This document shows positions 5,102 to 58,680 of a stretch of DNA of 64,000 nt, in pieces; positions within the stretch are counted from its first letter, which is position 1; each line of letters opens with the position of its first letter. The notes beneath the pieces were generated by a model. The model ran no database searches, was not told the origin of the DNA, and saw nothing but the letters and a program-made list of their open reading frames with translations. The translations under genes were made by a program, and so were the position numbers. This DNA is from Candidatus Levyibacteriota bacterium (GTDB taxonomy: Bacteria > Patescibacteriota > Microgenomatia > Levybacterales > UBA12049), in contig CAWBPM010000002.1 of assembly GCA_963790825.1 (NCBI GenBank), positions 97,702 to 161,701 on the forward strand. Direction: 5' to 3'.

Positions 5102-6106
5102 TTAAGCGGCCTTGGGTAGAATCGATGTGTAATAGGTTAATCGGGGGTTATCTGACTGAAAAGCAGCTTTAATTTCATCCGAATAGTTTCTTTTTTCTAA
5201 AATTTCGTTACGTCTGCCTGGATCAAATTCTTCATAAAGCTCAAGGATTGTTTCAAAATGTTCAATCTCTAATACCGCTTGAAAAGCTAATTTGCCAATT
5301 CTTGTGTCTCCAAGTTGTTCATTGAGTATTTTATTTACTTCTTCTCTTCCGCTTGCTCCGATGAGTCGTTCAACAGGTATCCTTTCAATATCCCTTCTTA
5401 TTTTAATAAGTTTTACCTCATCATCTGCCAGTTGTTTTAATTCATTAAATATATCAAAAGCAACATTACGGGGATCCTTAGCCAAGTATTCTTTTGCAGC
5501 AGTGACATTTCCCTCTAATGCTGGATCTTCCGAGGTTAACATTGCAATAGACGTAGAAAGCGAAAAATCAGGATCCTGCATTTGTTTAACTTCTTGTGCT
5601 TGTGCCATCGCCTGGCGAATTTGTGCCATTTGTTCACTAGTAGCCCCAAAGATCCATGTTACTGTCTCATCTGCCGCTCCTGTTTGTCGAGTGACGAATA
5701 TTTGGACACTATCGGGCAAGTTCAGCTGAGAAATTGCACTCGTTATACGGCTGGAGCTTTCCAGGATTACAGTGTCGCCAAATTCTCTGTCGTACTTGGT
5801 ATTCGCAGATTTCAGATTATCAGCATCTGCATAAATGAGTGCCCAGCTTGTACCTAAACGAAGTACATTAGATAGTTCGGAAGCCACTCTGATACGCATA
5901 CCATCCTCCTCAATGGGAAGACCAGTAAGAGGATCAATATGGGTTTGTTCAGGTAAATCATTTCGAAAAAAACGTGGTGGAATAGTAAGATTTATACCCT
6001 TACCACGTACCTTATCAATCCAAGGATTTAGTCTTTGCTGCTCTTGAGAAAATGATATTAAATCCAGCGAAGAAGAATCCGCTTCGCTATGCTCAGGGCT
6101 GTCCAT
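5102..6106 (-). CDS. GGDEF-domain protein with degenerate active site
   Basis: DPLTGLP...ALIYADADNLKSANTKYDREFGDTVI matches the start and A-site region of diguanylate cyclase GGDEF domains. The GG(D/E)EF position reads RQTGAADE, so it is probably non-catalytic. Confidence 0.45.
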   Translation of the reverse strand: MDSPEHSEADSSSLDLISFSQEQQRLNPWIDKVRGKGINLTIPPRFFRNDLPEQTHIDPLTGLPIEEDGMRIRVASELSNVLRLGTSWALIYADADNLKSANTKYDREFGDTVILESSSRITSAISQLNLPDSVQIFVTRQTGAADETVTWIFGATSEQMAQIRQAMAQAQEVKQMQDPDFSLSTSIAMLTSEDPALEGNVTAAKEYLAKDPRNVAFDIFNELKQLADDEVKLIKIRRDIERIPVERLIGASGREEVNKILNEQLGDTRIGKLAFQAVLEIEHFETILELYEEFDPGRRNEILEKRNYSDEIKAAFQSDNPRLTYYTSILPKAA

Positions 6107-7503: not shown

Positions 7504-8916
7504 TTAGAGTAATTTTGGTCTCTCCTTCCAGACAGAATTTATTTGCTCATACGCGTATCCAACCTGGTATAACCTTTCTTCCGAGAAGTGCGGGCCGAGA
7601 ATTTGCATACCAACCGGAAGATTATCGACAAATCCCATAGGAACAGACAACCCCGGAACACCGGTTAGATTGGCATGCACGGTAAAAATATCTGAAAGAT
7701 ACATAGACAATGGATCATTCATTTTCTCGCCCAGCTTCCAAGGCAGTGTAGGGGAGGCAGGAGTAATAATGACATCAACTTTTTTAAACACATTATCAAA
7801 ATCTTCCCTGAGGAGAGTACGAACCTGCATGGCTTTTTTGTAATATGCATCGTAATAACCGGCTGACAACACATACGTTCCCAACATGATGCGCCGCCTG
7901 GCTTCGTCGCCGAAATATGTTCTGTTATTGCCATAGCGAATTCCATCAAATCTGGCGAGATTAGAAGAAACCTCTGCGGTTTGGATGATGTAATAGACGG
8001 CAATTGCATACTCAGTATGCGGAAGAGAAACATCAATAATCTCAACTCCTAATTTTTCTAAATCTTTAAGTCTCTTTTCCATCATTTCTTTAATCCTCGG
8101 ATCTAAGCCCTCGATAAAATATTCTTTCGGAACACCAATTTTTAATCCTTTTACGCCCTCAGTAATATTTTTTAAATAATCGGGTACTATAGCTTGCGGG
8201 GTAGTAGCATCCATTCTATCTTTGCCTGCAGTTATAGAAAGTAGAAGAGCATTATCGTGAACTGTCTTTGTAAAGTGACCGATACTATCCAGAGACGATG
8301 CCATAGCGATAACACCGTATCGACTGACCCTTCCATAGGTTGGTTTAAGACCAACAGTATTAGTAAAGCTTGCCGGAAGCCTGATTGATCCTCCAGTATC
8401 AGTACCGGTTGCAGCCAAGCACATATCTGACGCGACACTGACAGCAGAACCACTGCTTGATCCGCCGGGAACAAAGCCAAAGTTGTAAGGATTTCTTGTC
8501 ACACCAAAATCGGAATTCTCACCCGATGATCCGTGTGCCCAGGCGTCGCAATTATTTTTTCCGACAATAATTACCCCGGCCTCTTTTAATTTTCTGACCG
8601 CTGTTCCGTCATATTGCGGAATATAGTCCTCAAGGACTTTTGAAGCCGCTGTGGTGCGAATTCCTTTTGTAACAAAGAGATCTTTTATGCCAATCGGAAT
8701 GCCGAGGAGCGGTAGTTTCTCACCTTTCTTTATTTTCTCATCGGCTTTTTTAGCCATTTCCAAGGCCTCAGTTTCTGATACAGTGATAAACGCATTTAAC
8801 TTTGCATTATGTTGTTTAATTCTCTCCAAGTACGCTGTAGTTAACTCCACAGAAGAATATTTTTTCTCCCGTAAATCCTTAATAGCCTGGGTAATAGTTA
8901 AATTTTGCAAATTCAT
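7504..8916 (-). CDS. gatA: Glu-tRNA(Gln) amidotransferase subunit A (amidase signature family)
   Basis: 470 aa with the amidase signature GGSSGGSA and Ser-cisSer-Lys context. Confidence 0.85.
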   Translation of the reverse strand: MNLQNLTITQAIKDLREKKYSSVELTTAYLERIKQHNAKLNAFITVSETEALEMAKKADEKIKKGEKLPLLGIPIGIKDLFVTKGIRTTAASKVLEDYIPQYDGTAVRKLKEAGVIIVGKNNCDAWAHGSSGENSDFGVTRNPYNFGFVPGGSSSGSAVSVASDMCLAATGTDTGGSIRLPASFTNTVGLKPTYGRVSRYGVIAMASSLDSIGHFTKTVHDNALLLSITAGKDRMDATTPQAIVPDYLKNITEGVKGLKIGVPKEYFIEGLDPRIKEMMEKRLKDLEKLGVEIIDVSLPHTEYAIAVYYIIQTAEVSSNLARFDGIRYGNNRTYFGDEARRRIMLGTYVLSAGYYDAYYKKAMQVRTLLREDFDNVFKKVDVIITPASPTLPWKLGEKMNDPLSMYLSDIFTVHANLTGVPGLSVPMGFVDNLPVGMQILGPHFSEERLYQVGYAYEQINSVWKERPKLL

Positions 8917-17833: not shown

Positions 17834-19382
17834 TGGAAAGGCCTAACTTCCGCTTCAATCGCACTTCTACTTAAAATCTGCCGGTTATAGGGTCGCTCCT
17901 ATAAAATTTGAAAACTATCTCAACCTGGATGCAGGCACAATTAATCCGATTGAGCATGGTGATCCGTTTCTGTGCGAAGACGGAACTGAGGGTGATATGG
18001 ATATGGGAACATATGAAAAATTCTTAGATGAAGACATGGGGAAAAGCAATTTCGTAACAATGGGTAGGATTTACCAAAATGTCATTGATAAAGAGAGAAG
18101 ATTTGAGTATGACGGTGAAGACGTAGAAGCAATTCCGCATATCACCGATGAAATAACCAGGTGTATTTATACCTTGGCGAAGGAAAAAGATGCACAGATT
18201 GTTCTAATCGAACTTGGCGGTACAGCCGGAGAATATCAAAATATATTTTACTATGAAGCTTCCCGAATATTGGCACTTCGTAATCCGGGGGACGTAGTTC
18301 ATGTACATGTCAGCTATGTTCCGACTCCTAGCCATTTGGGTGAACCGAAAACCAAACCGACCCAGATTATCCGTTCGTACACTTAATTCCATGGGAATTC
18401 AGCCTGATTTTATTATAGCCCGATCGGACAGAATGCTGGATAAAAGACGACGCGACAGATTTGCCCTGTTTTGCAATATGCATCCTGAAGATATTATTTC
18501 CAATCCTGATATCGAATCGGTATATGAGATTCCGCTTAATTCTACATGAACAAGGACTGGATAAGCGCATCATGCATAAATTACATCTTCCTTTGAAGAG
18601 AGCCGAAACTGGACCGCTTGGAAGCAATTTATAACAAGAGTAAAAAATCAAGAAGAGAAAGAAATTACGATCGCAATTGTGGGGAAATACTTCGGTACAG
18701 GAGAGTATCAAATGCGTGATTCTTATGCTGCGTTGCTTGATGCCATTGACCATGCGGCTGCGGCAGAAAATGTAAAAGTTATAACTAAATGGGTTAATGC
18801 TGAAAAAATAGAGTCCGCAATAGAAGAAGCAAAAAGTACAAGTAAAGATATTATAGTTAGTTGTTAAGGAAGTTATCGGTGAGCCGAACGGAATAATTGT
18901 TCCGATAGGTTGGGGAGAACGCGGCAGCGAAGGAATGATTGAAGCTGTCAATTATGCGAAGAATAACAAAGATTCCTTATTTAGGATTGTGTTTTGGTAT
19001 GCAGCTGGCGGTAGTTGGATTTGCCAGGGATGAACTCGGATGGAAAGATGCTAACAGTGAGGAATTAGATCCTAAAACTTCCCATCCGGTTATTCATTTC
19101 ATCGCCAACCAAAAAGAATTGATAGCCAGAAGAGCTTACGGCGGGACCATGCGGCTTGGCGGTTGGGAAGCAATTGTTAAAAAGGGTACAAGGGCTTTTG
19201 AGATTTATAAGAAATCTCATGCTTTTATAAATGAGAAAAAAGGATTAACCAGCGAACGGCATCGACATCGTTATGAATTTAACGACGAGTTTGCAAAGGA
19301 ATTAGAAGAACACGGGCTGGTTATTGCAGCCCGATCGGTTAAAGAGAATTTGGTAGAAATTATTGAGCTAGCAGAAATCTGA
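17796..19382 (+). pseudogene. pyrG: CTP synthase gene, heavily frameshifted (at least 8 frame changes) and no start codon
   Basis: PyrG-like segments in alternating frames: [47 protein letters not shown]...DMDMGTYEKF, TQHS-like RSVRTLNSMGIQPDFIIARSDR, KEITIAIVGKYFGTGEYQMRDSYAALLDA, and the glutaminase domain YLGLCFGMQ...ERHRHRYEFN. No ATG precedes the N-terminus. Confidence 0.65.
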
Positions 19383-26472: not shown

Positions 26473-26704
26473 AATACACAAATTAAAAATATAAGTCTAT
26501 AAAATAATAACTTAATTACATATCCGAATATTTGATATCTTAACTTGTCATTCATGCCTGAATTCCCGTTGTTCGGAATACTACGAAACCGGACTGGACA
26601 AAAACTTAATATCCACAGTTCGAATCCTAATCGCGGAGCAAATTAGCCTCAAAATTGACTTCTTTTTGAATTGAGACAACAATGTATTTGTAAGGAGATA
26701 TTTT

Positions 26705-26893
26705 ATGAACCTCACAACAAGTCTTATCGTTTTTGCCGCAATTATTATATCCGTTAATAATTTCGTGTTGTTTTATGTAATTAAGAATAATGGAATACAT
26801 TCAAGAATACACTCGCTTGGTATGATAGTATTTTTGATTAGTCTTATTGAAATTGTGGCAATTGGAATTTGGGCTTATATCCACTTAAGATAA
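26705..26893 (+). CDS. small membrane protein (two TM helices)
   Basis: 62-aa hydrophobic ORF preceded by AAGGAGATATTTTATG. Confidence 0.35.
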   Translation: MNLTTSLIVFAAIIISVNNFVLFYVIKNNGIHSRIHSLGMIVFLISLIEIVAIGIWAYIHLR

Positions 26894-26954
26894 TGGGTTC
26901 TCTCCATTTCCATCAGTCGGTTTCCGAAACCGATAGTGTGGAAACCGGAATATT

Positions 26955-27431: not shown

Positions 27432-27609
27432 ACTAAGAAGTTGAATTAATTTTCTCAAAAGAAGAGATAAAGTAGGTTCTCCCCATTTACATTAGGTGGA
27501 GCTCTGTTTGGCCTTAAATCGTGCCTAAAAAGGATTACGGGAATCGAACCCTAAAAAATAGAAGTCGTATAAACCCGGATTTGTGACACAGGGCTAATTA
27601 CCTACTATA

Positions 27610-28314: not shown

Positions 28315-28392
28315 TATAGAAGACTTGCAAAGGATGATATTTAAACCATCTCCTTGTCATATAACATCAAATTAACAATATGTTGCTCATGT

Positions 28393-28454
28393 AGGTTCAA
28401 ACGTCGACCTGCGACTCCACGCAGTGGATAGTCCCTTTATGGGGTAAGCGAAGC
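28393..28454 (+). repeat. family-A structured repeat, copy A1
   Basis: AGGTTCAAACGTCGACCTGCGAC-TCCACGCAGTGGA-TAGTCCCTTTATGGGGTAAGCGAAGC. Shares both ends and the double-hairpin layout with A2/A3, but the central hairpin sequence is swapped for a different 5-bp stem (TCCAC/GTGGA versus GATTC/GAATC). Confidence 0.7.
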
Positions 28455-28529
28455 TTAAGAGGTATAATTATTACACAATTATCATAAACATTTAGTATTA
28501 TTACTAAAATTGATTGGAGGTGATGAACA

Positions 28530-28673: not shown

Positions 28674-28940
28674 CAACAAAACAATATTGTGAAGCAGGAT
28701 GGGGCAAGTCAATAAACTAAATCTGAAGCTGAGGAAGTTACGTCTGGGATGTAAAACTACTCTTCTTGATGCTCAATAGTGGCTTTAACATTGTTTACGA
28801 TGCGGAGCTCGGTTTATTCATAATAAATTAGATACCAAGTATTACGAATACACTAACCAAGGACATTTTGGTGGGGATTACTATAAAGAAATTTTCCCTG
28901 AGCTTGTTCAAGCGATTAAAGAAGAGTTAGTTAGAAAATA

Positions 28941-28983
28941 GTTTCAAACGTCGGACTGTAGTCGGAACTCAGTTTAGCCTCAG
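28941..28983 (+). repeat. degenerate, truncated family-A-like repeat
   Basis: GTTTCAAACGTCGGACTGTAGTCGGAACTCAGTTTAGCCTCAG resembles the 5' half of family A (GGTTCGAACGTCGACC...). Confidence 0.35.
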
Positions 28984-29027
28984 AAATGACAAGAAATAGC
29001 ATAGTAGGATGGTGATATAATCACCGT

Positions 29028-29669: not shown

Positions 29670-29700
29670 GTCTTACCTCTGCGCTAAATAGTACTGTACC

Positions 29701-29763
29701 AGGTTCGAACATTGGCCTGCGACGATTCGAAGAATCTAGTCCCCTTGTGGGGTAAGCGGAGCT
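29701..29763 (+). repeat. family-A structured repeat, copy A2
   Basis: AGGTTCGAACATTGGCCTGCGACGATTCGAAGAATCTAGTCCCCTTGTGGGGTAAGCGGAGCTG. Starts about 30 nt after the stop of the 29028-29669 gene. Confidence 0.7.
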
Positions 29764-29824
29764 GATATGCTTTGATATATTTTGTTAGTCTCAAGGTTGC
29801 TTCTGGTATAATGGAACTATTCAT

Positions 29825-30169
29825 ATGGATGAGACAGTAAAATTGGTAGTTTTTGTACCTGAAACTCATGCAGATATAGTCAGAGAAGCTATGGGCAAGG
29901 CAGGAGCTGGAATAGTGGGAGATTATAAATACTGTAGCTTTTCAGTTAAAGGAACGGGAAGATTTATCCCGCTCGATACTGCACATCCATTTATTGGTAA
30001 GGTAGGCAATTTGGAAGAAGTAGAGGAAGAACGAATCGAAACTGTTTGTTATAAGAAAGACTTGGAAAAGATAATTGCAGCTATAAAAAAGGTTCATCCC
30101 TATGAAGAAGTTGCATTAGACGTTTATCCTTTGGTTTTAAATCCTCATGAAACAACATATAAGAAATAG
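29825..30169 (+). CDS. hypothetical protein, PII/CutA-like fold suspected (resembles NIF3-family insert domain)
   Basis: 114 aa. KLVVFVPETHADIVREAMGKAGAGIVGDYKYCSFSVKGTGRFIP...EERIETVCYKKDLEKII pattern. Family assignment is from memory only. Confidence 0.3.
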   Translation: MDETVKLVVFVPETHADIVREAMGKAGAGIVGDYKYCSFSVKGTGRFIPLDTAHPFIGKVGNLEEVEEERIETVCYKKDLEKIIAAIKKVHPYEEVALDVYPLVLNPHETTYKK

Positions 30170-30232
30170 TTCCTCACATATTCAACCAGGGAGAGCTCAG
30201 GCTAGTCCCAGTTTTACTAACTTGAATAGGAT
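30168..30232 (+). repeat. family-B repeat, copy B1 (B core + A-like CTAGTCCC segment + inverted partial B core)
   Basis: GTTCCTCACATATTCAACCAGGGAGAGCTCAGGCTAGTCCCAGTTTTACTAACTTGAATAGG. The forward core ATATTCAA and the inverted TTGAATA lie about 45 nt apart. Begins 1 nt after the stop of the preceding gene. Confidence 0.65.
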
Positions 30233-30258: not shown

Positions 30259-30696
30259 GTGGCAATAAAATTTGAATTTCGTGATATGACTGACAACGAA
30301 TATAAACAAGAGCAGTCTGCGTTCGATGAACACGGGTTAGAGTTTGGTAATCCTCCCGAGAAGCAAGAACGTTTTGGATTTATAGCCACTGAAAATGAGG
30401 AATTTGTAGGTTGCTCAAGTGGATTAGCACAAAAAAATAATGGTCAATATGGCAAATACTTCTATTTGAGTGATTTATTGGTTGAAAAAAAATATCGAAA
30501 ATATGGCTATGGAAAAAAGCTTTTAGAGTTGCTTGAAAGTAAACTAAAGTTGCTTGGTATAGAATATGTTTGGACATGGACAGCAGGTTATGAAGCCCCA
30601 CCTTTTTATCTAAAACAAGGATATAAGACTTTTACAACATTTGAGAATTATTACCCGTCTGGTCATGCTAGAGTTGGATTTATAAAAAAGCTATAG
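30259..30696 (+). CDS. GNAT family N-acetyltransferase
   Basis: Acetyl-CoA binding region LLVEKKYRKYGYGKKLLELLE (Q/RxxGxG/A-like) in a 145-aa protein. Confidence 0.65.
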   Translation: MAIKFEFRDMTDNEYKQEQSAFDEHGLEFGNPPEKQERFGFIATENEEFVGCSSGLAQKNNGQYGKYFYLSDLLVEKKYRKYGYGKKLLELLESKLKLLGIEYVWTWTAGYEAPPFYLKQGYKTFTTFENYYPSGHARVGFIKKL

Positions 30697-30707
30697 AGCT
30701 CTAAAGT

Positions 30708-30770
30708 AGGTTCGAACGTCGACCTGCGACGATTCGAAGAATCTAGTCCCCTTATGGGGTAAGCGGAGCT
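30708..30770 (+). repeat. family-A structured repeat, copy A3
   Basis: AGGTTCGAACGTCGACCTGCGACGATTCGAAGAATCTAGTCCCCTTATGGGGTAAGCGGAGCT, 4 differences from A2. Begins 12 nt after the GNAT stop codon. Confidence 0.7.
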
Positions 30771-30848
30771 AAATACCTTACGTTAGAATCATAATTTAGA
30801 TTGATAAAACAAGCCAAATATACAACTCTCTTTAGATAGTTTTGTAAA

Positions 30849-30876
30849 AGGTATGCGGAGTTGAATGTGTGAGGAA
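30849..30876 (-). repeat. mosaic junction: A-3'-end-like segment fused to an inverted family-B core
   Basis: Plus strand reads GGTATGCGGAG-TTGAATGTGTGAGGAA. GGTATGCGGAG resembles the A end GGTAAGCGGAG. The reverse complement of the rest is TTCCTCACACATTCAA, which is the B core with 1 mismatch. Confidence 0.55.
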
Positions 30877-30914
30877 TCATTGACTTGCCTTCTTAATCGT
30901 GCCACACTATTTGT

Positions 30915-31553
30915 ATGGAAGAGCAGGTAAAATCGTTTCAACTTTCCCCAGCCCCTGATAAGAACCACCATAAAAGAGTCATTATGTACGGAATAGGGGC
31001 AATATTTCTTTTGATATTAGGTATGGGAATTGGATATTTAATAGGAATAAATAATACTGTCAGCTATTCAATAAAACCACAGACAGAAACATTAAAGCAA
31101 AATTCAAATACTACCATATTGTCAATTTCTCCTTCCCCAACTGATGACCAAATCTTAAATATGCTTCCTACGCTGGAGCCAGAGTTTCAATGGCAACAAG
31201 TAAAAACAGCACAATTTACTTATCCTTTAACGTCAAACACACAATTATCTGGAGAGCAGAGAATTGGAACTCAAATGGTGCAGGATGCAAATAGTTGGCC
31301 GACACCATCGTTTGCCCCCAGTCACATCGATTTACCAACATTGCTAAAGAATGGTTGGAATGAAGATATTACCTTAGATACAGGAGGTGTAGGAGGAGGA
31401 CAGCAAGGATTTAACAAATTTGAAGGGGGAAAAGAGCGAATTCTTGTTTGGGGAACTTCAATAGGCCCATTGGTTCCATCCGCTAATGGACCGGATGTTC
31501 TCAAATGCCCCTGTACTAGGCAAACAACTGTTTTTATCAGCAATCCCTTCTAA
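30915..31553 (+). CDS. hypothetical membrane-anchored protein
   Basis: 212 aa with a TM helix at residues ~23-45 (VIMYGIGAIFLLILGMGIGYLIG), then a Gln/Thr/Pro-rich extracytoplasmic domain. No motif. Confidence 0.45.
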   Translation: MEEQVKSFQLSPAPDKNHHKRVIMYGIGAIFLLILGMGIGYLIGINNTVSYSIKPQTETLKQNSNTTILSISPSPTDDQILNMLPTLEPEFQWQQVKTAQFTYPLTSNTQLSGEQRIGTQMVQDANSWPTPSFAPSHIDLPTLLKNGWNEDITLDTGGVGGGQQGFNKFEGGKERILVWGTSIGPLVPSANGPDVLKCPCTRQTTVFISNPF

Positions 31554-31603
31554 ATTATAAAAATTATAAGTATCATTAATCCGTTCATGGGCTAAAGTAA
31601 AAA

Positions 31604-31630
31604 TTCCTCACATATTCAACCAGAGGGAGT
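31604..31630 (+). repeat. family-B repeat, copy B2
   Basis: TTCCTCACATATTCAACCAGAGGGAGT. Potential CCTC/GAGG stem. Followed 8 nt later by an ATG opening a 25-codon ORF. Confidence 0.6.
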
Positions 31631-31707
31631 AAAATTATGCTTAGAACGTTTCAGGCAGATAGACAAATTCTTTATGTAACCTTTTCAGAGTTTGGTATAC
31701 TTAATTC

Positions 31708-32184
31708 ATGTTAATTAGAAAAGCAACAATTAACGATGGGCAACAACTGATTGAAAAACTCGCAGAATTCGACGAGTACCTTACTCCATTATTTTCGCCA
31801 GAAATTAATCCCTTTGTCCAATATAAAGATAAAAACAAGACGTTTGAAGAAGTAGTGACGGAATGGCTAAATAACCCAGAATATATTCTTTTTGTTGCAG
31901 AAGATAACGGAAGTTTACTCGGTCATATATGTGGAACAGTTAAAAAGAAAAAATACTCTGTAAAAGATAGGGAAGGATCAGTAGAAGAATGGTTTGTTTC
32001 AGAAGAATATAGGCACCAAGGAATAGGTAAACAACTTTATCAAGCACTTTTATTAGAATTCAAAAAAGCAAAGTGCACTCATTTAAAATTACGTGTGTTT
32101 ACCGATAACAAGAAAACAATAGGTATGTATCATAAAATGGGTTTTATGGATCTAGAGTTTACTTTGATTAAAAAACTAGAATAA
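31708..32184 (+). CDS. GNAT family N-acetyltransferase
   Basis: VSEEYRHQGIGKQLYQALLLEF acetyl-CoA binding motif. 158 aa. Confidence 0.65.
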   Translation: MLIRKATINDGQQLIEKLAEFDEYLTPLFSPEINPFVQYKDKNKTFEEVVTEWLNNPEYILFVAEDNGSLLGHICGTVKKKKYSVKDREGSVEEWFVSEEYRHQGIGKQLYQALLLEFKKAKCTHLKLRVFTDNKKTIGMYHKMGFMDLEFTLIKKLE

Positions 32185-32194
32185 TCAAGTAATA

Positions 32195-32222
32195 GTTCCC
32201 CGCATATTCAATCAGATGGGGC
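32195..32222 (+). repeat. family-B repeat, copy B3 (compensatory CCCC/GGGG stem)
   Basis: GTTCCCCGCATATTCAATCAGATGGGGC. Where B2 has CCTC...GAGG, this copy has CCCC...GGGG at the equivalent positions. Confidence 0.6.
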
Positions 32223-32333
32223 AAATTATTATAGTCTCAACCAACTATATCGGACTGTACCAACTCCAAATAGAATTCTAGTTTTGGTTAAGATTTGCAA
32301 TCCAATCCTATAGCTGATATGTTTCTTGTAATT

Positions 32334-32935
32334 ATGCCAAAAGAATTTGAAGGTATTCTTGTAGCTCTCGAAGGAATTGATAATGGGGGTAAAAGTAGCC
32401 ATATTAATATCCTAGAAAGAAGACTTATAGCAAAGGAATTTCGTGTGAGATTACAAAAGAACTAAGCACACCAGTAGGGGAACTTGTCCGGAAGTATTTA
32501 AGAGAGGGTAATTTTTCTCCGCATCTGAAAACTTTACTTTTTGCAGCCGATAGAGTTGAAAGAGTTGATAAGCAAGTCAAACCAGCACTCCAGCAAGGAA
32601 AAGTCGTCCTTGCTGATAGATGGTCTCTTTCAGCAGTAGTGTACCGAGGCGTTGAGGGATTTGATGCTGAGTATGTTTTGGCAGTGAATTCTAAAACCCT
32701 GCAGCCAAATAAGATTTTCCTTATAGATATACCTGCTGAACTTTCAGTAAAACGGGGCGAATTAGGGAACAAACCACATCCGTATTCGATTGAATTTCTT
32801 GATAATGCAAGGAGACACTATCTTGAATTAGCAGGAAAAGATTCAGACATTGAAGTAATCGATGGAACACAATCTTTTGATGTGATAAATAACCTTCTCC
32901 TTCAACGAATCTTGAAATTAAGAGAGGGTAAATAA
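32334..32935 (+). pseudogene. tmk: thymidylate kinase with one -1 frameshift (pseudogene or 1-nt deletion error)
   Basis: N-terminus MPKEFEGILVALEGIDNGGKSS (P-loop) ends at a TAA near 32461. The rest (ELSTPVGELVRKYLREGNF...LADRWSLSAVVYRGVEG...) continues in the -1 frame to 32935. Restoring one A in TTACAAAAG (to TTAACAAAAG) rejoins the frames. Confidence 0.6.
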
Positions 32936-33006
32936 TGGCGAGAAAAAGACTTGAAGATCAGTAGAAAAAGATAATTTAGTTTATATTTATTCTTGACCTT
33001 TTGATT

Positions 33007-33534
33007 TCACTTATACAGACCTTTATGAATAAAGGGAATAAGAGCTAAAACTACAACATCCTCGTAAAGTTTATCTCTCGTAATCAAATCTTTAGTTAAT
33101 AGTCCAACGGCTCCGTTATTTTGCTTTGAATTGTGTTTTTTAAAGACAGTATCGATTGCATCGCCCAACTCCTTACCCTGTTTTACGAGTTGTGTAACTT
33201 TTTCTGGCAAAAAGTAAGTATCTGTTTTTGCGCTACCGGTTTGATCTTCAGATTTAATAACTACCCATGTAAATGAACTAAGCATACCACCGACTATCTC
33301 AACTCCACCCTCAATTCCTATCCAATAATCAGCTTTTGGAAATATTTTTACAACATTGTTAACCCTGTTTATGGCTCCCTTAATTGTTTCTTTGTCTCCT
33401 ATTGGTTGGCCTGCTACTCTCGACTCAACCGATACAGACTCGATTTTTACATCTTTTGTTTTAAATACTTTCTTGAAGGCGTTTTCAACAGCCCTTATTT
33501 TAACTGGATTGGTAGAAGCTATAACGATTTTCAT
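33007..33534 (-). CDS. yjjX: inosine/xanthosine triphosphatase (YjjX/DUF84 non-canonical NTPase)
   Basis: MKIVIASTNPVKIRAVENAFKKVF...VESRVAGQPIGDKETIKGAINR matches the YjjX family. Start taken at the internal Met, giving a 4-nt overlap with the upstream gene; the ORF as listed extends to 33594. Confidence 0.6.
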   Translation of the reverse strand: MKIVIASTNPVKIRAVENAFKKVFKTKDVKIESVSVESRVAGQPIGDKETIKGAINRVNNVVKIFPKADYWIGIEGGVEIVGGMLSSFTWVVIKSEDQTGSAKTDTYFLPEKVTQLVKQGKELGDAIDTVFKKHNSKQNNGAVGLLTKDLITRDKLYEDVVVLALIPFIHKGLYK

Positions 33535-34301
33535 TTTAAAAGATTGAGTATATCCTGTTTTATTTTTGGTTTTCCCTCTGAACCTAACAACCATAAAGCT
33601 CTATCAAAAGTAATCCAATTTATCCCAGCTTCTTTGCATGCTTTGTTCCACAACAACTTAACTTGCTGTATGTTTTTATCTGTCATTTCGTTATTCTCAA
33701 CAAACCCCATCAAATGAGCAATACGAACATCGTGTATGTCGACCGGTTGTAAGACAGACCCAATATCATTATATTTGAAACCAAAAGTGGAAATCATGGC
33801 CCTAAAAAAGAGATTTCCTGTTTTCGGCCCCATACCTCTAAAATCCTGAATTTTGCCTACTGCTTCTATTGCTGTTTTAGAATCTGTAAACATTTTTGTC
33901 GGGTCGCCATCATAATATTCTTGTAACTTTTTGGAATTTGCCTTATAACGAACAACTGCTTCATTAGGGTAGCGAGGCTTCATATATTCAGTTAGAATTT
34001 TAAACAATTCTTCACCACTCAAATCTCGAATGTATGAGGGTGTAAAAAATTCTGGTTTTTGTTGATAACATCTTGTTGCTCCCGCATATAAAACCCTTCC
34101 TTTAATGGCGTAATCGAGTTGGATTACATAGAATAGAAATAAAGATTGTCGAAGCGGGCTAGCTTCTTTTGGGACATAATCTTCTACATTTCTAAATTCT
34201 GAAAAAACACCTTCACGAGCAAGAAATCTATTTGTAACAGTTGTTACAAACTCCGACACAGCTAAACCTTCTTCATTTTGTAGTTTTCTTTGTCTTCCCA
34301 C
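33531..34301 (-). CDS. HhH-GPD superfamily DNA glycosylase-like protein
   Basis: Helix-hairpin-helix FRGMGPKTGNLFFRAM followed about 20 aa later by VDIHDVRIAHLMG. This resembles the LPGVGxKTA...VDTHxxRV pattern of Nth/AGOG-type glycosylases. No Fe-S cysteine cluster. Confidence 0.45.
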   Translation of the reverse strand: MGRQRKLQNEEGLAVSEFVTTVTNRFLAREGVFSEFRNVEDYVPKEASPLRQSLFLFYVIQLDYAIKGRVLYAGATRCYQQKPEFFTPSYIRDLSGEELFKILTEYMKPRYPNEAVVRYKANSKKLQEYYDGDPTKMFTDSKTAIEAVGKIQDFRGMGPKTGNLFFRAMISTFGFKYNDIGSVLQPVDIHDVRIAHLMGFVENNEMTDKNIQQVKLLWNKACKEAGINWITFDRALWLLGSEGKPKIKQDILNLLK

Positions 34302-34534
34302 TACACAATATTAGCTCGCAGATTGAATAAAATCAACACAAAATTATGCCTGATAATAAGTTCTGATATCATCCACCAGTAAAATAAGACGATGAAAGTT
34401 CTTTATTTCCTAACAAGTTGCCGACAAAGAGATAACTTCGCTTATTAAGGAAATATCAAAGTTATTCTAATATCACGACTTTCGTAAATATTATTATCTA
34501 TTATTTTGATTGTACATTTCTCCGTAATACTAAG

Positions 34535-34580
34535 TTCCCACATATTCAATCCCGGTTTGATCGAAATCAACCAGAGGAGT
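34535..34580 (+). repeat. family-B repeat, copy B4 (with 17-nt palindromic insertion)
   Basis: GTTCCCACATATTCAAT-CCCGGTTTGATCGAAAT-CAACCAGAGGAGT. The core is interrupted by an insertion containing the palindrome TTGATCGAAATCAA. Confidence 0.55.
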
Positions 34581-34595
34581 ATTCCGGCAAAGCAT

Positions 34596-36252
34596 TCAAT
34601 AATCTTCTAAAGTTGAGGTATCACCGATAGGGAGGCCGAGTTCTTTCGCCTTCAAAATTCTTCGCATAATCTTACCTGATCTCGTCTTTGGCAGCTTATC
34701 GATAAATTCAATTTCTCTGGGATATGCATGACCTGCAAGGTATTTTTTTACGTGTTCTGCCAGCTCTTTCTTCAATTCTTCAGACGGCTGATAATCTTTT
34801 TTCAAAACAACAAATGCTTTTATGATTTCCCCACGGAGTGGGTCGGGTTTGCCGAATTACTCCCGCTTCGACAACAGCCGGATGTTTAACCAGCGCGCTT
34901 TCTACCTCAAAAGGTCCTACCCGTTCACCTGAGGTTTTAATAACATCGTCAGCCCGTCCGATAAACCAATAATATCCTTCAGGATCTTTTTTCGCTTTAT
35001 CACCTGACAAATACCAGCCATTTAAGAAGTAACTGTTATATTTCTCTTCATTCTTCCAAACCGTTCTCATAATCGATGGCCAAAACGGTTTCAGACACAA
35101 ATTTCCCTCTTGACCGTCTGAAACAGGCTTCCCTTCGTCATCTAAAATCGCAGCCTGCATCCAAGGAAGTGGCTTTCCCATTGAGCCGGGCTTTACGTCC
35201 AGAGAAGATAGATTAGATATCATAATCGATCCGGTTTCTGTTTGCCACCAGCCATCATGGAAATACATACCAAACGTCTCCTTTCCCCAAATAACTGCTT
35301 CCGGATTTAGCGGTTCACCGACGGATGTTAAATAGCGAAGACTGGACAAATCGTACTTTTTCGTAAGTGCTGCTCCTTGAGCCATAAGCATCCGGATTGC
35401 GGTAGGTGCGGTATACCAAACGGTTACTTTATGTTTTTCAATCAATCCATACCATACTTCAGGATCAAATCTTCCTCCATGAACAAAGGTAGTAATACCT
35501 AAGGACCAGTTACTTAAAATGCTATAAACTATGCCTGTTACCCATCCCGGATCGGCAGTACACCAATACACATCATCGGGTTTCAGGTCAAGTATTAATT
35601 TCGCGCTGGCATGAGACTGAACAATACCCGCATGTGCATGAACAATACCCTTCGGCTTACCGGTGGTTCCTGAGGTATACAACATGAATGCATAATCTTC
35701 AGGCTGAGTATGAACTACGGAGAAGGTCTCAGCTTGCAAATCAAAATCTGCACGGAATTTATCATCGTCAACAACGATGACATGCTCTAAAGCAGGCAAA
35801 TCTTTTATTACCGAATTGATTCGTACGGCTAGATCTTTGTTAGTGATGACGACTTTTGCTTCAGAATTTCCCAATCTGTCTTTTAATGCATCTTGCTGGA
35901 ATGCCGAGAACATACTTCCGGCAATTGCTCCGGTTTTTAAAATACCGAGAAAAGAAATAAATAATTCCGGAATCCGAGGGAGGAAAATAAATACACGGTC
36001 TCCTTTTTTGACGCCTTGGGAAGTTAGGTAATTTGCAATTTTATTGCTTTGTTTCGAAAGTTGAAAGAAGGAATACTCACTTACTTTTCCATCTTCCGAT
36101 TCGAAGATAAGCCCAATTCTATTTCCGTTTCCTCTCTCAATATGTTTATCGACTGCGTTATAAGCACTATTCAGCGATCCATCTTCAAAAAAAGCGATAT
36201 CTTTTTTAGCTGCTTCAAGAAGTGGGTGGGACAGTAGATACTTGTTATCCAT
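34596..36252 (-). pseudogene. acs: AMP-forming acyl/acetyl-CoA synthetase with one +1 frameshift near the C-terminus (pseudogene or sequencing error)
   Basis: 490-aa ORF with the AMP-binding motif YTSGTTGKPKG ends out of frame (…EAGVIRQTRPTPW…). The downstream 69-aa ORF encodes the authentic C-terminus (KAFVVLKKDYQPSEEL…LPKTRSGKIMRRIL). The frames rejoin if one base is removed in GGAGTAATTCGGCAAACC. Confidence 0.6.
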
Positions 36253-36734: not shown

Positions 36735-39000
36735 TTATTTCTTATTTACCAACTTTCTCTCAAACTCTGCAATATTTTCTCTGACACTGTCGATGACATC
36801 AGGAGCAATAGAAACGCTGGTTATGCCATATTCTACTAATTTTTCCAGAAGATCCGGATACAAAGAAGGCGCCTGTCCGCAAATAGACGCTGTGATATGG
36901 TGCTTATGAGCAGTTTTGATAACATGTTCAAGCGCCCACAAAACCGCTTCACTCCGTTCATCAAATTCCGCTGCCACCTCGCTATTGTCCCGATCAGTTC
37001 CCAAAATCAACATGGTTAAATCATTTGATCCGATCGAAATACCGTCAATACCAACTTTTATAAATTCGTCAAGTAAAATAACATTCGAAGGAATTTCTAC
37101 CATCATGAAAAGCTTGAATGTCGGAGTTCTGTAAAGACCCGAAGCATTAATAATTTTCTTGACTTCAATCAGCTCATGAACGTTCCTGACAAACGGAATC
37201 ATGAGCCAAAGATTTTTCAACATCTTTTTGTTTCTGATTATTTTAATAGCTTCAAGTTCCATCTCGAAGACCTCGGGATCATGAATATACCGGTAAGCCC
37301 CGCGGTAACCCAGCATAGGATTTGGCTCGATAGGCTCAAATTCTTTCCCGCCGTCCAAGCCCCGATACTCATTCGTTTTTAAATCCGACGCCCGATAAAT
37401 AACCGGACGGGGATTAAAGGCTGAGCAAAAAGTCTCAAGCCCCAGAGCTAATTTATCAATAAAAACTTTTTTCTTCCCGTCCCGGATGAGTTTTTTCGGA
37501 TGAGTGCCGATATCTGCTATCATAAACTCCGCACGCAGTAACCCAACACCGTCGACATTTCGTCTGGCTACTTTTTCCGCGAGATCCGGTTGGGCAAGAT
37601 TAACATAAACTTTTGTCGCAGTTTTTATATATGCATGTCTTGCTTCAGGAATAGAACTCATCGCGCTTGGTTTGAAGCTCCCTTTGTATATTTCTCCCTT
37701 TGCTCCGTTTACCGTGATGACCTCTCCTGTTTTTAATATTTTTGTTGCCGTTTCGGTACCGACGACTGCCGGAATCCCCAGTTCCCGGGAAACAATCGCA
37801 GCATGTGAAGTTCTGCCGCCTTTTTCAGTCACGATAGCTACAGCTTTTTTCATCGCCGGAACATAATCGGGATTTGTTTGCTCTGCAACCAGTACATCTC
37901 CCGGGAGAACTTTATTAATTTCAGACACCGAATGAATTACTTTCCGCGGGGCCGCTGGCAATTCCCGGAGAAGCAGGGGCACCGGTAAGAAGAAGCGGTA
38001 GATTAATAACTTCCTCTTTTACCTTTTTCGTATGAGTAGTTGTAATTGCCCGGGTTTGGACAATATATACTTTATTTTTCTCAATCGCCCATTCGATGTC
38101 CTGGGGAAAATAATAATGATGCTCAAGTTTTTTTGCAAGAAGTGCGAGTTCTAAAATCTGATTGTCGGAAATTTTCTGTTTTTTCTTTTCATGATCCGTT
38201 AACCTAATCTCTTTATTTTTTGTCCCAACCTTTTTCAACATAATATCTTGCGGAGAGATAATTTTTTTCAAAATCTTAAGATCATCTTTTTTAACTTCAT
38301 AGTGATCGGGCGTAACCGTTCCCTGAACAATATTTTCTCCGAGACCCAAAATTGCTTCGATGGTAATGACAGACTTATCATTAGTTACCGGATCAAGGGA
38401 AAACATAACACCGGATTTTTCTGACTCAACCATTTTTTGAACAACGATTGCGATACCGACTCTGAAATGATCAAAATGTTGTTCATGCCGGTAAAATATG
38501 GCACGCGGTTCAAAAAGTGATGCCCAAGCTTCTTTGACTGCGAAGAGTAGATTTGTTTCACCTTTTATATTAAGATACGTTTCCTGCTGTCCTGCGAAAG
38601 ACGCAGTTGGCAAATCCTCAGCAGTAGCGCTTGAACGCACCGCAACAAGTGCGTCTTTAAAAATACCACCCAACATTTTATACGATTTAAAAATGTCATT
38701 GATTAATTGTTCCGACATACTCGCTTCCATAATCAGTTTTTTAATAAGTGAGGAAACTTGAGCAAGTGATTCGGGTCTGTCAAAACCGGTGGTTCCCAGT
38801 AGATGTTTAATTTTTGTGGTCAGGTTATTTTCGTGAAGAAACTGGAAATAAGATTGGGAGGAAACAATAAACCCATTCGGAACGGGAAATTTGGCTCTGG
38901 TCATCTCGCCCAAATTAGCACCTTTTCCGCCAACAACGGGAATGTCATTTTTATCTACTTCGGAAAACCAAAGAACTGATTTACTTTTTACGGGCATCAC
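36735..39000 (-). pseudogene. ppsA: phosphoenolpyruvate synthase (pyruvate, water dikinase) split by one frameshift
   Basis: N-terminal 359-aa ORF is the PPDK_N ATP-grasp (PEP/pyruvate-binding) part. C-terminal 415-aa ORF has the phospho-His mobile domain GGRTSHAAIVSRELGIPAVVG and the PEP-utilising TIM barrel. The junction near 37925-37980 falls in a G/C-run (AGCGGCCCCGCGG). A 1-nt indel rejoins GIASGPA to RKVIHSV. Confidence 0.6.
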
Positions 39001-45199: not shown

Positions 45200-45766
45200 C
45201 CTTTATTTTCCCTCTTGACAATTAGGAAAAGGATATGATTTACTAAATGCAGAGATATGAAAACAACTGCCCCGATAAATAAACTAGCTAAAGGTTTTAC
45301 CCTCATCGAGCTCTTAGTTGTTATCGGCATTTTAGCAATTCTTTTGGCAATCACCTTAATCGCAATTAATCCGGCCAGACAATTCTCCCAGGCAAATAAT
45401 ACAAAAAGAAGCAGCGATGTGAATGCTATTCTTAATGCCGTCAATCAGTATATGGCAGATAATAAAGGTGCTCTTCCCACAGGTATTAGTACGACAGCCC
45501 AGACGATTAACGGAGTAGATTTTGGAGCCATGTGCACTGCATTGGTTCCTACATATATAGCCGCACTTCCGGTAGATCCATTATCTAATGCAAATGCGGT
45601 ACAGTCTACAGATTGCACGAGTACTACATGGAATACAGGATACGTAGTACAGCAGTTAACAGGTGGCAGCAATAGGCTTACGGTATCCGCACCGGGAGCA
45701 GAGCTGGGGGCCACTATCTCCGTAACCAGATAAAGAGTTTCTCCTTATTAATTTAATTATTATTAA
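45200..45766 (+). repeat. 567-bp perfect direct repeat, copy 1 (pilin promoter + pilin gene + 33 nt 3' flank)
   Basis: Identical base-for-base to 48076-48642 by direct comparison of the printed sequence. The flanks diverge immediately outside both ends. Confidence 0.85.
45257..45733 (+). CDS. pilA: type IV major pilin (prepilin with 13-aa leader, G|FTLIELLVV)
   Basis: MKTTAPINKLAKG|FTLIELLVVIGILAILLAITLIAINP class III signal. 158 aa, with two Cys near the C-terminus (disulfide loop). A TTGACA hexamer lies 35 nt upstream. Confidence 0.8.
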   Translation: MKTTAPINKLAKGFTLIELLVVIGILAILLAITLIAINPARQFSQANNTKRSSDVNAILNAVNQYMADNKGALPTGISTTAQTINGVDFGAMCTALVPTYIAALPVDPLSNANAVQSTDCTSTTWNTGYVVQQLTGGSNRLTVSAPGAELGATISVTR

Positions 45767-48075: not shown

Positions 48076-48642
48076 CCTTTATTTTCCCTCTTGACAATTA
48101 GGAAAAGGATATGATTTACTAAATGCAGAGATATGAAAACAACTGCCCCGATAAATAAACTAGCTAAAGGTTTTACCCTCATCGAGCTCTTAGTTGTTAT
48201 CGGCATTTTAGCAATTCTTTTGGCAATCACCTTAATCGCAATTAATCCGGCCAGACAATTCTCCCAGGCAAATAATACAAAAAGAAGCAGCGATGTGAAT
48301 GCTATTCTTAATGCCGTCAATCAGTATATGGCAGATAATAAAGGTGCTCTTCCCACAGGTATTAGTACGACAGCCCAGACGATTAACGGAGTAGATTTTG
48401 GAGCCATGTGCACTGCATTGGTTCCTACATATATAGCCGCACTTCCGGTAGATCCATTATCTAATGCAAATGCGGTACAGTCTACAGATTGCACGAGTAC
48501 TACATGGAATACAGGATACGTAGTACAGCAGTTAACAGGTGGCAGCAATAGGCTTACGGTATCCGCACCGGGAGCAGAGCTGGGGGCCACTATCTCCGTA
48601 ACCAGATAAAGAGTTTCTCCTTATTAATTTAATTATTATTAA
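48076..48642 (+). repeat. 567-bp perfect direct repeat, copy 2
   Basis: Identical to 45200-45766 (offset 2876 bp). Confidence 0.85.
48133..48609 (+). CDS. pilA: type IV major pilin, exact duplicate of 45257-45733
   Basis: Encoded protein identical over all 158 aa. Lies inside repeat copy 2. Confidence 0.8.
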   Translation: MKTTAPINKLAKGFTLIELLVVIGILAILLAITLIAINPARQFSQANNTKRSSDVNAILNAVNQYMADNKGALPTGISTTAQTINGVDFGAMCTALVPTYIAALPVDPLSNANAVQSTDCTSTTWNTGYVVQQLTGGSNRLTVSAPGAELGATISVTR

Positions 48643-48767
48643 TCCATTATTTATTTGTATTTTGTTTAATTTTATTTCTTATGAAGATAGCCTTTTTAAG
48701 TATACAACTTTCAAAATATTCCCTATTGACAAATAATTGAAAAAACTGATTAAATTAGTGCATAGAT

Positions 48768-49244
48768 ATGAAAACAACTGCCCCGATAAATAAACTAGCT
48801 AAAGGTTTTACCCTCATCGAGCTCTTAGTTGTTATCGGTATTTTGGCAGTATTACTGGCAATTACTTTAGTTGCCATCAATCCGGCCAGACAATTTTCCC
48901 AGGCAAATAATACAAAACGAAGCAGTGACGTAAACTCCATTCTGGATGCAATTAATCAGTACATGGCAGATAATAAAGGTGCTCTTCCCACAGGTATTAG
49001 TACAACTGCCGCAACAATTAATGGGACGGGCTTTACAGCTCTCTGTAGCGCTTTAGTACCTACTTATATAGCCGCTCTTCCGACTGATCCATTATCGAAT
49101 AATTCTGCCGTACAGTCCAGTAGCTGTACAAGTACAACATGGAATACAGGATACGTAGTACAGCAGTTAGTAGGAGGAGGTAATAGGGTAACTGTTTCTG
49201 CTCCTATGGCTGAGCTTAGTGCAACTGTTTCAGTAACGAGATAG
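48768..49244 (+). CDS. pilA: type IV major pilin, divergent third paralogue
   Basis: Same leader and N-terminal helix (MKTTAPINKLAKGFTLIELLVVIGILA). About 30 substitutions concentrated in the central/C-terminal variable region. Own TTGACA-N17-ATTAAAT promoter-like sequence upstream. Confidence 0.8.
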   Translation: MKTTAPINKLAKGFTLIELLVVIGILAVLLAITLVAINPARQFSQANNTKRSSDVNSILDAINQYMADNKGALPTGISTTAATINGTGFTALCSALVPTYIAALPTDPLSNNSAVQSSSCTSTTWNTGYVVQQLVGGGNRVTVSAPMAELSATVSVTR

Positions 49245-57601: not shown

Positions 57602-58300
57602 TTAAATCTCAAGCAATAAAAAGTCAATTGCGCTGCTGAGAGGAGTAAGAAGCGTACCTGTTTTTTGAGCGAGGTCAAGCTCAAAAAGCTTTTGATAAAT
57701 TGCTTTAAGTTCGGAAGAAGAGAATGCTTTTGCCTGTCGCTCTAATTTTCCTCTTTGCCAGGGGGCAAGCCTTTTTACTTCCTCAATAGCCTCTTCGGTT
57801 TCTTCCCGAAGCGCAAGAAGCAAACGGAATTGACGAATCAGCATAAAAAAAACAATCTCTTCCTGATTGGTTTTAAGCAGATCCTTAAAAAGTGTCAGCA
57901 TTATTTTGTGATTTTTCGGTTTTATGCTGTCTAAAAAAACGAACAATGTTTTCGGATAGTGAAAATTTTTACAACTAGCTTCTTTCCAAAAAACGATTGA
58001 CCTCTTATCTATTTCTTTTCCTTCCCAAAGGTATATATCAGTGTCTTTTGCGCTTTTCTGTATCTGCTCTTTAATCGCATCCAGCTCCTTGCCGGTTTTT
58101 CGTTTGGATAACAGCAGCTCGATAAAAATGCCGCCTGAGGAAGAGAAAAGATCACTTCCGCCGGCAGCTTGGATAAGATCGGTGAGCGTCATTTTTTCAC
58201 CATCCAGGGATACGTTTTTCCCGTCCTGCTCCTTTATAGATAAATAAAACTTTCTCGATGTTACGATGTCTTCCCCATGAATAATAGTAAGCATAATCAA
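57602..58300 (-). CDS. holA: possible DNA polymerase III delta subunit (short form)
   Basis: N-terminus IIHGEDIVTSRKF resembles the holA start (YLLYGEE..L). The rest is helical with a delta-like layout. 232 aa is short for the family. Call is from memory of family patterns only. Confidence 0.35.
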   Translation of the reverse strand: MIMLTIIHGEDIVTSRKFYLSIKEQDGKNVSLDGEKMTLTDLIQAAGGSDLFSSSGGIFIELLLSKRKTGKELDAIKEQIQKSAKDTDIYLWEGKEIDKRSIVFWKEASCKNFHYPKTLFVFLDSIKPKNHKIMLTLFKDLLKTNQEEIVFFMLIRQFRLLLALREETEEAIEEVKRLAPWQRGKLERQAKAFSSSELKAIYQKLFELDLAQKTGTLLTPLSSAIDFLLLEI

Positions 58301-58680
58301 TGGTTTGCTGTTTTTTTCTTATATTCCTTAAAAAGCCTACCGGCCAGAGTATCCAGATGTCTTGCTCTGGTTCTATGCGGAAGGAGAGCGCCGGAAAAAT
58401 TTTTGGGGATATGTAAAATCTCATGAATAAGTACTTTTTTCTTTTGGTCTTCGTCAAGACGGTCGTAATACTTTGTTAATACCTCGATTACATAGGCAGG
58501 TTCTACACTTAGAGCATCTTGGAAGATTTTCGGAAATCCCCAGGTTCTGGCATATGCCCGCGCTTTTGAGCCTGAGGTACGGTAACAGAAGATTCTGTCC
58601 ATATTAATATGCGGCAAGTCCAGAATTGCCAAAATTTTTATAAGGTCTTGCCTAACATCGGGCGCGTTATTCCATTCCAT
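58297..58680 (-). CDS. putative zinc metallopeptidase (HExxH; SprT/DUF45-like)
   Basis: KKKVLIHEILHIPKNFSGALLPH contains HEILH plus a downstream His. Confidence 0.35.
   Translation of the reverse strand: MEWNNAPDVRQDLIKILAILDLPHINMDRIFCYRTSGSKARAYARTWGFPKIFQDALSVEPAYVIEVLTKYYDRLDEDQKKKVLIHEILHIPKNFSGALLPHRTRARHLDTLAGRLFKEYKKKTANH

Follow-up and report, generated by a model that had tools for sequence, protein, structure and literature searches.

We found that the junction at positions 30849-30876 is one seam in a patchwork intergenic region built from the modules of a single repeat family. The family measures about 28 nt and has the form (T)AG(G)TTC-N~18-GGAGC; judged by their alignment, the two elements designated A and B in the earlier note are variants of it. 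It is a well-defined and previously undescribed repeat family rather than an established mechanism, and literature searches returned neither a description of it nor anything on integrons or cassette repeats in CPR/Patescibacteria. Our preferred reading, to which we give slightly less than an even chance, is that the element may be a punctuation signal at the 3' ends of genes, with illegitimate recombination between its copies. In the following, the window is the whole 64-kb stretch of DNA that was analysed (G+C content 37.6%), and the island is its segment at 26.6-34.6 kb (~8 kb), which holds all 13 family copies of the window, the other 56 kb containing none. The copies and the modules associated with them, apart from those at the junction itself, are listed here:

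26617-26639, plus strand: first family copy, AGTTCGAATCCTAATCGCGGAGC, a short and T-loop-like variant at the left island edge, about 145 nt downstream of RsmI
26644-26661, plus strand: TAGCCTCAAAATTGACTT module, opening the next gene unit; the same module stands after many copies in other contigs
26705-26893, plus strand: gene for a 62-aa two-helix membrane protein, 73-90% identical in 165 proteins
26892-26921, plus strand: probable family copy AATGGGTTCTCTCCATTTCCATCAGTCGG after the 62-aa gene, resembling the 27474 copy; a weak match, made by eye
27474-27502, plus strand: family copy AGGTTCTCCCCATTTACATTAGGTGGAGC after the PEMT-like gene
27509-27549, plus strand: module TGGCCTTAAATCGTGCCTAAAAAGGATTACGGGAATCGAAC, common to contig L050, ending in an inverted T-loop-like half-element
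28388-28458, plus strand: A0, a long A whose P2 hairpin is wholly changed yet pairing
28937-28972, plus strand: short A-type copy without the 43-nt insert, followed by TAGCCTCAGA at 28975
29696-29766, plus strand: A1, a long A after the DUF2268 gene
30165-30200, plus strand: B1, whose first bases double as the stop codon (TAG) of the 114-aa gene, with CTAGTCCC in its tail (30202-30209)
30703-30773, plus strand: A2, a long A after the GNAT gene at 30259-30696
31599-31634, plus strand: B2, a family copy
32191-32226, plus strand: B3, a CCCC...GGGG variant after the GNAT gene at 31708-32184
34529-34585, plus strand: B4, at the right edge of the island, with a direct-inverted-direct core (TTCAATCC / GGTTTGAT / ATCAACC)

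The unity of the family can be read from its alignment. Eighteen copies align without any gap, with (T)AG(G)TTC at the 5' end, about 18 variable bases and GGAGC at the 3' end, and intermediate forms occur in other contigs (L050, AAGTTCGAACATCAACCTGTAAGCGGAGC; L070, AGGTTCTAACGTCGTCCATCAGGCGGAGC; B type, AGTTCCCCACATATTCAACCAGAGGGAGC). The A model also picked up short-A forms such as the L050 sequence in other contigs, and a simple search returned a graded series of variants. The B type (AGTTCCYCACATATTCAACCAGAGGGAGC), the 'GAAC' type and the 'TAAC' type have the same ends and common TCAACC(A/T)G-like middles. A is represented in the window by three full 71-nt copies (28388, 29696 and 30703) and by the short copy at 28937, which skips 33 model positions; the long A equals the short GAAC type plus a 43-nt two-hairpin insert (CGAC, P2, TAGT, P3) placed between CCTG and TAAGCGGAGC, and its P2 still pairs through four double changes in A0. 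It is this relation between short and long A, together with the common middles and ends, that makes A and B one family. Thus, the earlier proposal that A and B are modules of one mobile or recombining family holds for the single family, on the strength of the ungapped alignment and the intermediates, but its mobility is unsupported, since the window encodes no recombinase and the elements have no attC-like partner arm. The B element is 94% identical between the window and contig L051, while a highly conserved gene common to both is only 84% identical in DNA. That the element is better conserved than such a gene points to constraint or to a recent spread and does not discriminate between the readings considered below.

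At the junction itself, positions 30846-30885 read aaaaGGTATGCGGAG up to the seam and TTGAATGTGTGAGGAAtcattgac beyond it, and the features found there and directly downstream are as follows:

30849-30876, no strand assigned: the reported junction, at which an A 3' end (30850-30860) abuts an inverted B core (30861-30876)
30799-30863, plus strand: A3-psi, a decayed tandem A copy identified by the A model and colinear alignment, with GGTATGCGGAG as its 3' end
30860-30881, minus strand: inverted 5' part of a B element, model positions 1-22, without the 3' third
30880-30885, plus strand: TTGACT, a putative -35-like hexamer between the inverted B half, which it directly follows, and the 212-aa gene
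30915-31553, plus strand: gene for a 212-aa membrane-anchored protein without a Pfam family, with the inverted B half on one side and B2 on the other

The direct fusion of an A-type end to an inverted B core, the central claim of the earlier note, was confirmed in the sequence. The Logan short-read assembly of ERR11594402 (L087) is 99.97% identical to window positions 30724-34552 and contains exactly the same junction; being reproduced in a separate short-read assembly, the junction is real DNA and no assembly artefact. Its 11-mer (30850-30860) is one base off the A 3' end GGTAAGCGGAG (29751, 30758). Whether this likeness could be due to chance depends on the length compared: the bare 11-mer, with at most one mismatch, has seven matches in the window against 0.46 expected and is weak evidence by itself, because three of the matches are coding sites (7277, 19901 and 37703), whereas the extended 15-mer pattern GGTAWGCGGAGYTGA, with one mismatch allowed, is found only in A1, A2 and the junction, against 0.02 expected, and is very unlikely to be a chance similarity. 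On the other side of the seam, TTGAATGTGTGAGGAA (30861-30876), read on the opposite strand, gives exactly TTCCTCACACATTCAA, a sequence one mismatch away from the B cores at 30170 and 31604 (three matches against 0.04 expected), and the inverted homology reaches 22 nt (AATGATTCCTCACACATTCAAC, 30860-30881 on the minus strand). With B2 the inverted B half forms an 18-nt inverted repeat of 94% identity that spans the 212-aa gene, and with B1 a 22-nt inverted repeat of 86% identity. The A-type block that had been noticed in B1 is indeed present in its tail, but it is a weak likeness, this 8-mer having three matches against 0.86 expected.

The A-type end, which had been taken for a recombined fragment, proved to be the normal 3' end of a complete, decayed tandem A copy. 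The A model (R1, filters off) recognises a decayed long A at 30815-30865 (7.8 bits, E 0.003 in 141 nt): TGCGAC is represented by TACAAC and the P2 position by a small hairpin, TAGT is exact, P3 is degraded, and the 3' block is TATGCGGAGTT in place of TAAGCGGAGCT. By MAFFT the whole of 30799-30863 is colinear with A0-A2; from these two alignments we conclude that the A-type end belongs to an ordinary, gene-less tandem copy. This copy starts 25 nt past A2 with no gene between the two, and the local order is GNAT gene, A2, decayed tandem A, inverted B 5' half, promoter-like region, 212-aa gene, B2. Between A2 and the decayed A, positions 30779-30792 (TACGTTAGAATCAT; minus strand, ATGATTCTAACGTA) are a possible inverted 'TAAC'-type half-element, with a score that is not significant, and share the end GAATCAT with the inverted B half; there are hints in the sequence that an 'A plus inverted half' may have been duplicated in tandem. 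A conserved upstream region of the 212-aa gene was considered as an explanation for the inverted half and rejected: in L043, the sole relative of this gene, homology reaches no further than about 30 nt upstream of the ATG, which leaves the inverted B outside the conserved leader. Inverted half-elements just ahead of a promoter were also found at L060 81-94, in L050 and at window positions 27536-27549. No second inverted B core was found among the ~35 B-type copies.

Mosaics of other kinds recur in the family and its surroundings. B 5' halves run into unrelated sequence after ...AACCAG in L055 (twice), L069, L079, L075 and L045, and a chimera in L070 breaks after ATTCA; the breakpoints cluster at TTCAACCAG, a clustering that would equally suit a dedicated recombination core. 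Thus, of the check for further chimeras that the earlier note had called for, the recurrence of B 5' halves on unrelated 3' parts is one outcome, and the lack of any further inverted chimera in the ~35 B-type copies is the other. The footprint of recombination that it had read from the junction is borne out as far as mosaicism recurs (L055, L069, L070, L075, L079, L045 and B4), but its words 'mobile' and 'site-specific' are conjecture, since there is no recombinase in the window, no attC-like arm and no other inverted chimera, and since the A end is not recombinant. Further modules accompany the copies: the TAGCCTCAAAATTGAYTT motif, which may be a promoter element, an operator or a unit boundary, stands 4-12 nt after many of them and opens the next gene unit (L059, L060, L070, L073, L083, L085 and the window, here at 26644-26661 and 28975-28984, with variants at 29786 and in the B1 tail, TAGTCCCAG), and a second block, T.GYCTYAAATCGTGC..AAAGGATTACRGGAATCGAAC, is common to window positions 27509-27549 and L050. 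The unit of the 62-aa gene can be aligned in four genomes from TTAGCCTCAAAATTGA to the stop codon, with a different preceding element and different neighbour genes in each, as would be expected of units with TAGCCTC at their start and the element at their end. We considered this shared cassette as proof of transfer, but the argument is weakened because the gene is so conserved. Its protein is more conserved than RsmI, and a homologue is labelled DUF202/YidH-like by one source. In L055, intergenic sequence plus the start of the next gene is repeated with 78-87% identity (1116-1249 vs 8355-8483; 3290-3444 vs 5624-5777), indicating that whole blocks of element, promoter and gene start also duplicate.

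The island in which these mosaics lie is strain-specific and consists of single-gene units. No other protein in the database is more than 72% identical to RsmI of the window, whose named relatives are CPR bacteria, e.g. Candidatus Levybacteria. The gene order LysM, pyrG, L19, UPF0102, UvrB, LexA, RsmI ... PPDK, Hpt, response regulator, T2SSE, T2SSF is common with the relatives; in these, His_Phos_1 and PPDK follow RsmI directly or two genes on and there is no such island, so that about 8 kb are inserted between RsmI and PPDK with the flanking synteny otherwise kept. The insert holds mainly small plus-strand genes, for the 62-aa membrane protein, a PEMT-like protein, a DUF2268 protein, a 114-aa protein, two GNAT proteins, the 212-aa orphan and thymidylate kinase (tmk). 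Five of the 12 extended -10 boxes (TGnTATAMT) of the window are inside the island; those at 29013, 29804, 30244 and 31693 stand 6-12 nt before start codons, at no fewer than four genes, and the fifth (26961) is just inside the listed start of ORF 26955. From this spacing, the sequence suggests that the island genes would be separate transcription units, leaderless or nearly so. The same arrangement of boxes before start codons is seen in L050 and L070.

Some further observations concern the genes of the window. Thymidylate kinase is divided into two ORFs in the window (32295-32935) and is an intact 205-aa gene in L087 (1596-2213); the two sequences show a single gap difference over 3830 nt, and the split is probably a 1-nt indel error in the long contig, or else a variant. 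Split ORFs are likewise found for pyrG (N-terminal and GATase parts, 17997-19382), acetyl-CoA synthetase and PPDK (34596-36252, 36735-39000), and these may be further frameshift errors or real pseudogenes. A 567-bp segment with a pilin-like N_methyl gene is duplicated with 100% identity (45200-45766 vs 48076-48642) and has a third copy, 79% identical, at 48716-49243. A gene with a putative phage metallopeptidase domain lies at 58297-58680 among housekeeping genes.

Beyond the window, the family shows a consistent relation to the 3' ends of genes. Using a sequence model and a weight matrix, we counted about 53 copies in 17 sources: the window itself and 16 contigs of low G+C content from metagenomes. 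When metagenomes were scanned with the B core, 39 loci were hit, of which about 15 proved to be low-GC contigs carrying genuine B copies. Every full-length copy within a given locus is on one strand. At least 42 of the 53 copies lie 0-93 nt past the stop of an ORF on their own strand; among these are 14 copies whose first five bases overlap the stop codon. A block of three overlapping, tightly packed genes in L051 (3987-5546) has a single copy, after its last gene only. The genes preceding copies are mostly accessory or of unknown function, and they also include those for RsgA, a cold-shock protein and a HIT protein. Control loci from array-less relatives had no copies or very few. The 16 contigs may come from only a few related species, and conservation across taxa is therefore not established. 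Exact and degenerate A patterns had no match in species-representative genomes or in metagenomes, phage and plasmid collections gave no match, and all matches in viral contigs (29 + 8) were discarded as unrelated coding sequence.

We compared the element with known kinds of RNA and DNA signal. A first impression of A as a twister-type ribozyme was abandoned for want of an Rfam match; Rfam 15, including twister, pistol, hatchet and hammerhead, gave nothing relevant at the gathering score or at E<=10 in the island, L050, L059 and L070. The predicted hairpins are weak (about -5.5 kcal/mol for B), with stems of only 4-6 bp and loops of 13-18 nt, and many copies are preceded by GTAG or TAG. Fold energies are no better than those of shuffled sequences (z between -0.25 and -1.8 in A and between -0.4 and -1.5 in B, and about 0 at the junction), about 8 of the ~35 B copies are without the 3' strand of the stem, and covariation in the closing stem is sparse. 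Nor do the elements qualify as classical intrinsic terminators: no T-tract follows them, GGAGC being followed by an A-rich tail, and a terminator scan remained at chance level. Other transcription-unit ends in the window have no element, so it is not the general terminator of the organism. The B core fits the attC consensus RYYYAAC, and its inverted copy GTTRRRY, with AAT instead of AAC in B3 and B4; assignment to attC was nevertheless rejected because no consistent partner arm follows downstream, the best inverted match for an R'/L' arm among 31 copies being 4-9 nt long, at scattered distances and at chance level. Like integron-type arrays, the arrays are one-directional and compact, with mostly single-ORF units each ending in the repeat. 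In the ~65 ORFs of the 64-kb window that were scanned, Pfam found no recombinase or transposase (Phage_integrase and Y1_Tnp included). The length of the element fits an Xer/dif site, but its symmetry is confined to about 6 bp at the outer ends, its copies are arranged as direct repeats, and it has no known similarity to dif. Location at the terminus or dif was dropped as a candidate, GC skew following the gene strand and giving no clear terminus. A search with ARAGORN for tRNA and tmRNA genes was negative for the island and for 12 array loci. Inverted doublets are rare, with one inverted B core in ~35 and, as the only clean pair, L060 3-16/81-94 (14 nt, 93%).

In the reading that we prefer, the element would act as a strand-specific gene-end signal that separates closely packed transcription units. 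The signal might lie in the RNA, where it would be a weak hairpin whose loop is sequence-specific, or in the DNA, as a polar protein-binding site. Because the same short sequences recur every 0.4-1.5 kb, copies could act as substrates for illegitimate events, and nearby copies would be joined by microhomology, template switching or short-homology recombination. Such events could have given rise to the chimeras, the gene-less repeat remnants and the inverted B half, with no dedicated recombinase needed.

Two other readings, both unlikely and with about the same weight, deserve to be set against a gene-end signal. In the first, the ~28-nt elements would be integron-like cassette sites, acted on by a recombinase encoded elsewhere in the genome with a crossover near TTCAACC or at GGAGC|TAGCCTC; single-gene units would be excised, inserted and sometimes inverted, leaving the inverted B half and B4 as by-products of strand exchange. 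The one-directional arrays of single-gene units, each closed by a family copy, the position of the island at a synteny break, the constant site length with its partly symmetric ends (AGTTCC...GGAGCT) and the clustering of chimera breakpoints at the core all agree with it, as do the homology of the 62-aa unit, bounded by TAGCCTC... and the stop codon and set among different neighbours in four genomes, and the 18-nt inverted repeats that bracket the 212-aa gene. It is opposed by the lack of any integrase, resolvase or transposase both in the window and among the scanned array genes of L051 and L055, by sites that without an R'/L' partner arm are not attC-like, and by the long A insert, which would break a duplex site of fixed spacing. 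Moreover, the housekeeping genes for RsgA and the cold-shock protein also precede copies, and the sharing of a gene as conserved as that of the 62-aa protein is no proof of transfer. Somewhat less probable again is the fuller form of this idea, a cassette system of CPR (Microgenomates-like) bacteria that would resemble integrons but be unrelated to them, with single-gene units, several of them with promoters of their own, strand-specific ~28-nt sites and a recombinase elsewhere that shuffles the units, of whose strand exchange the inverted B half and the triplication in B4 would be scars.

The second reading, as improbable as the cassette sites, takes the copies for selfish, non-autonomous repeats of the REP/BIME or MITE type, spread by a transposase elsewhere (e.g. 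RAYT/Y1) and persisting where they are harmless, just past stop codons; the mosaics and the inverted half would then be normal debris. In its favour, the copies are short with some palindromic character, several of them (A0, A2, 27474, L055 and L069) have a conserved (G)TAG at the 5' end, they form modular mosaics with other conserved intergenic blocks, decayed and truncated copies are present, and an element is occasionally paired with an inverted half, as in the L060 pair and at the junction. Their restriction to one strand per locus, mostly that of the upstream ORF, is however not expected of random insertion, and their clustering in one island rather than over the window, the rarity of inverted doublets, the lack of a Y1 transposase gene in the window and the failure to recognise target-site duplications likewise speak against it.

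Considerably less probable than either is an origin from degraded tRNA 3' ends (T-loop to acceptor strand), as attachment-site scars of serial integrations with a parent 3' end ...TCGCGGAG. The 26617 copy (AGTTCGAATCCTAATCGCGGAGCA) and the start of L060 (AGGTTCGAGTCCTAGTCGCGGAGCA) do fit the T-loop consensus GTTCRANYC followed by an acceptor-like strand, but neither the island edges nor any array locus has a tRNA or tmRNA gene, the length of most copies exceeds that of a tRNA 3' end by 5-6 nt, the B types are without a T-arm, and the units are single genes without integrases. That the similarities at the junction are meaningless chance is very improbable indeed: the coding matches of the bare 11-mer would allow it, but the expectations for the 15-mer and the inverted B core, the colinear decayed A copy and the direct adjoining of both similarities inside a repeat-rich island go against it.

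The genomes of CPR bacteria are very small, and little is understood of the ways in which these organisms acquire and rearrange accessory genes. A repeat family found at the ends of accessory units, in arrays from several metagenomes, gives a handle on how such units are delimited and possibly reshuffled. It is also a candidate for a gene-end signal of a new kind, in a lineage without evident classical terminators in the region scanned; if instead the site-specific reading were true, it would represent a cassette system independent of integrons.

Among known systems, integron arrays with attC sites, including the attC clusters without an integrase (CALINs), share with the arrays described here the one-directional, mostly single-gene units, the repeat that can overlap the stop codon, the GNAT accessory genes and the match of the B core ATTCAAC to the RYYYAAC consensus. 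Unlike attC, however, the element has neither an R'/L' arm nor the 57-141-nt imperfect palindrome, intI is absent from the window, and several units have their own promoters. The Xer-dependent dif modules (pdif modules of Acinetobacter plasmids, IMEX elements) are small gene modules bounded by sites of about 28 bp and are similar in the size of their sites and in what these bound, but pdif sites alternate in orientation and have dif-related 11-6-11 arms, whereas those described here are direct, symmetric only in the outer ~6 bp and have no Xer nearby.

The extragenic repeats known from other bacteria offer a second set of comparisons. In BOX elements of Streptococcus pneumoniae, boxA, boxB and boxC modules are assembled in varied combinations and numbers, and both families are thus modular intergenic repeats; BOX modules, however, measure 45-59 bp, form stable structures, are not tied to stop codons and have no sequence similarity to the element. 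The REP/BIME (bacterial interspersed mosaic element) repeats of enterobacteria and pseudomonads, which are known to stabilise mRNA 3' ends and to act in termination, are likewise short, partly palindromic and extragenic, often lie just past stop codons and form mosaics, and their (G)TAG-like 5' end has a counterpart in many of the present copies. In contrast to them, the present copies are on one strand per locus, mostly after a same-strand ORF, and arrayed rather than dispersed, they seldom form inverted doublets, their weak hairpin has a long loop of conserved sequence, and the window has no RAYT. Correia elements, the MITEs of Neisseria, differ in their length of 100-155 bp, their 26-bp terminal inverted repeats, their TA duplications and their occurrence in either orientation, most copies described here having no second arm; still, both are small intergenic elements near genes with possible promoter- or terminator-like signals, and the L060 3-16/81-94 pair resembles terminal inverted repeats.
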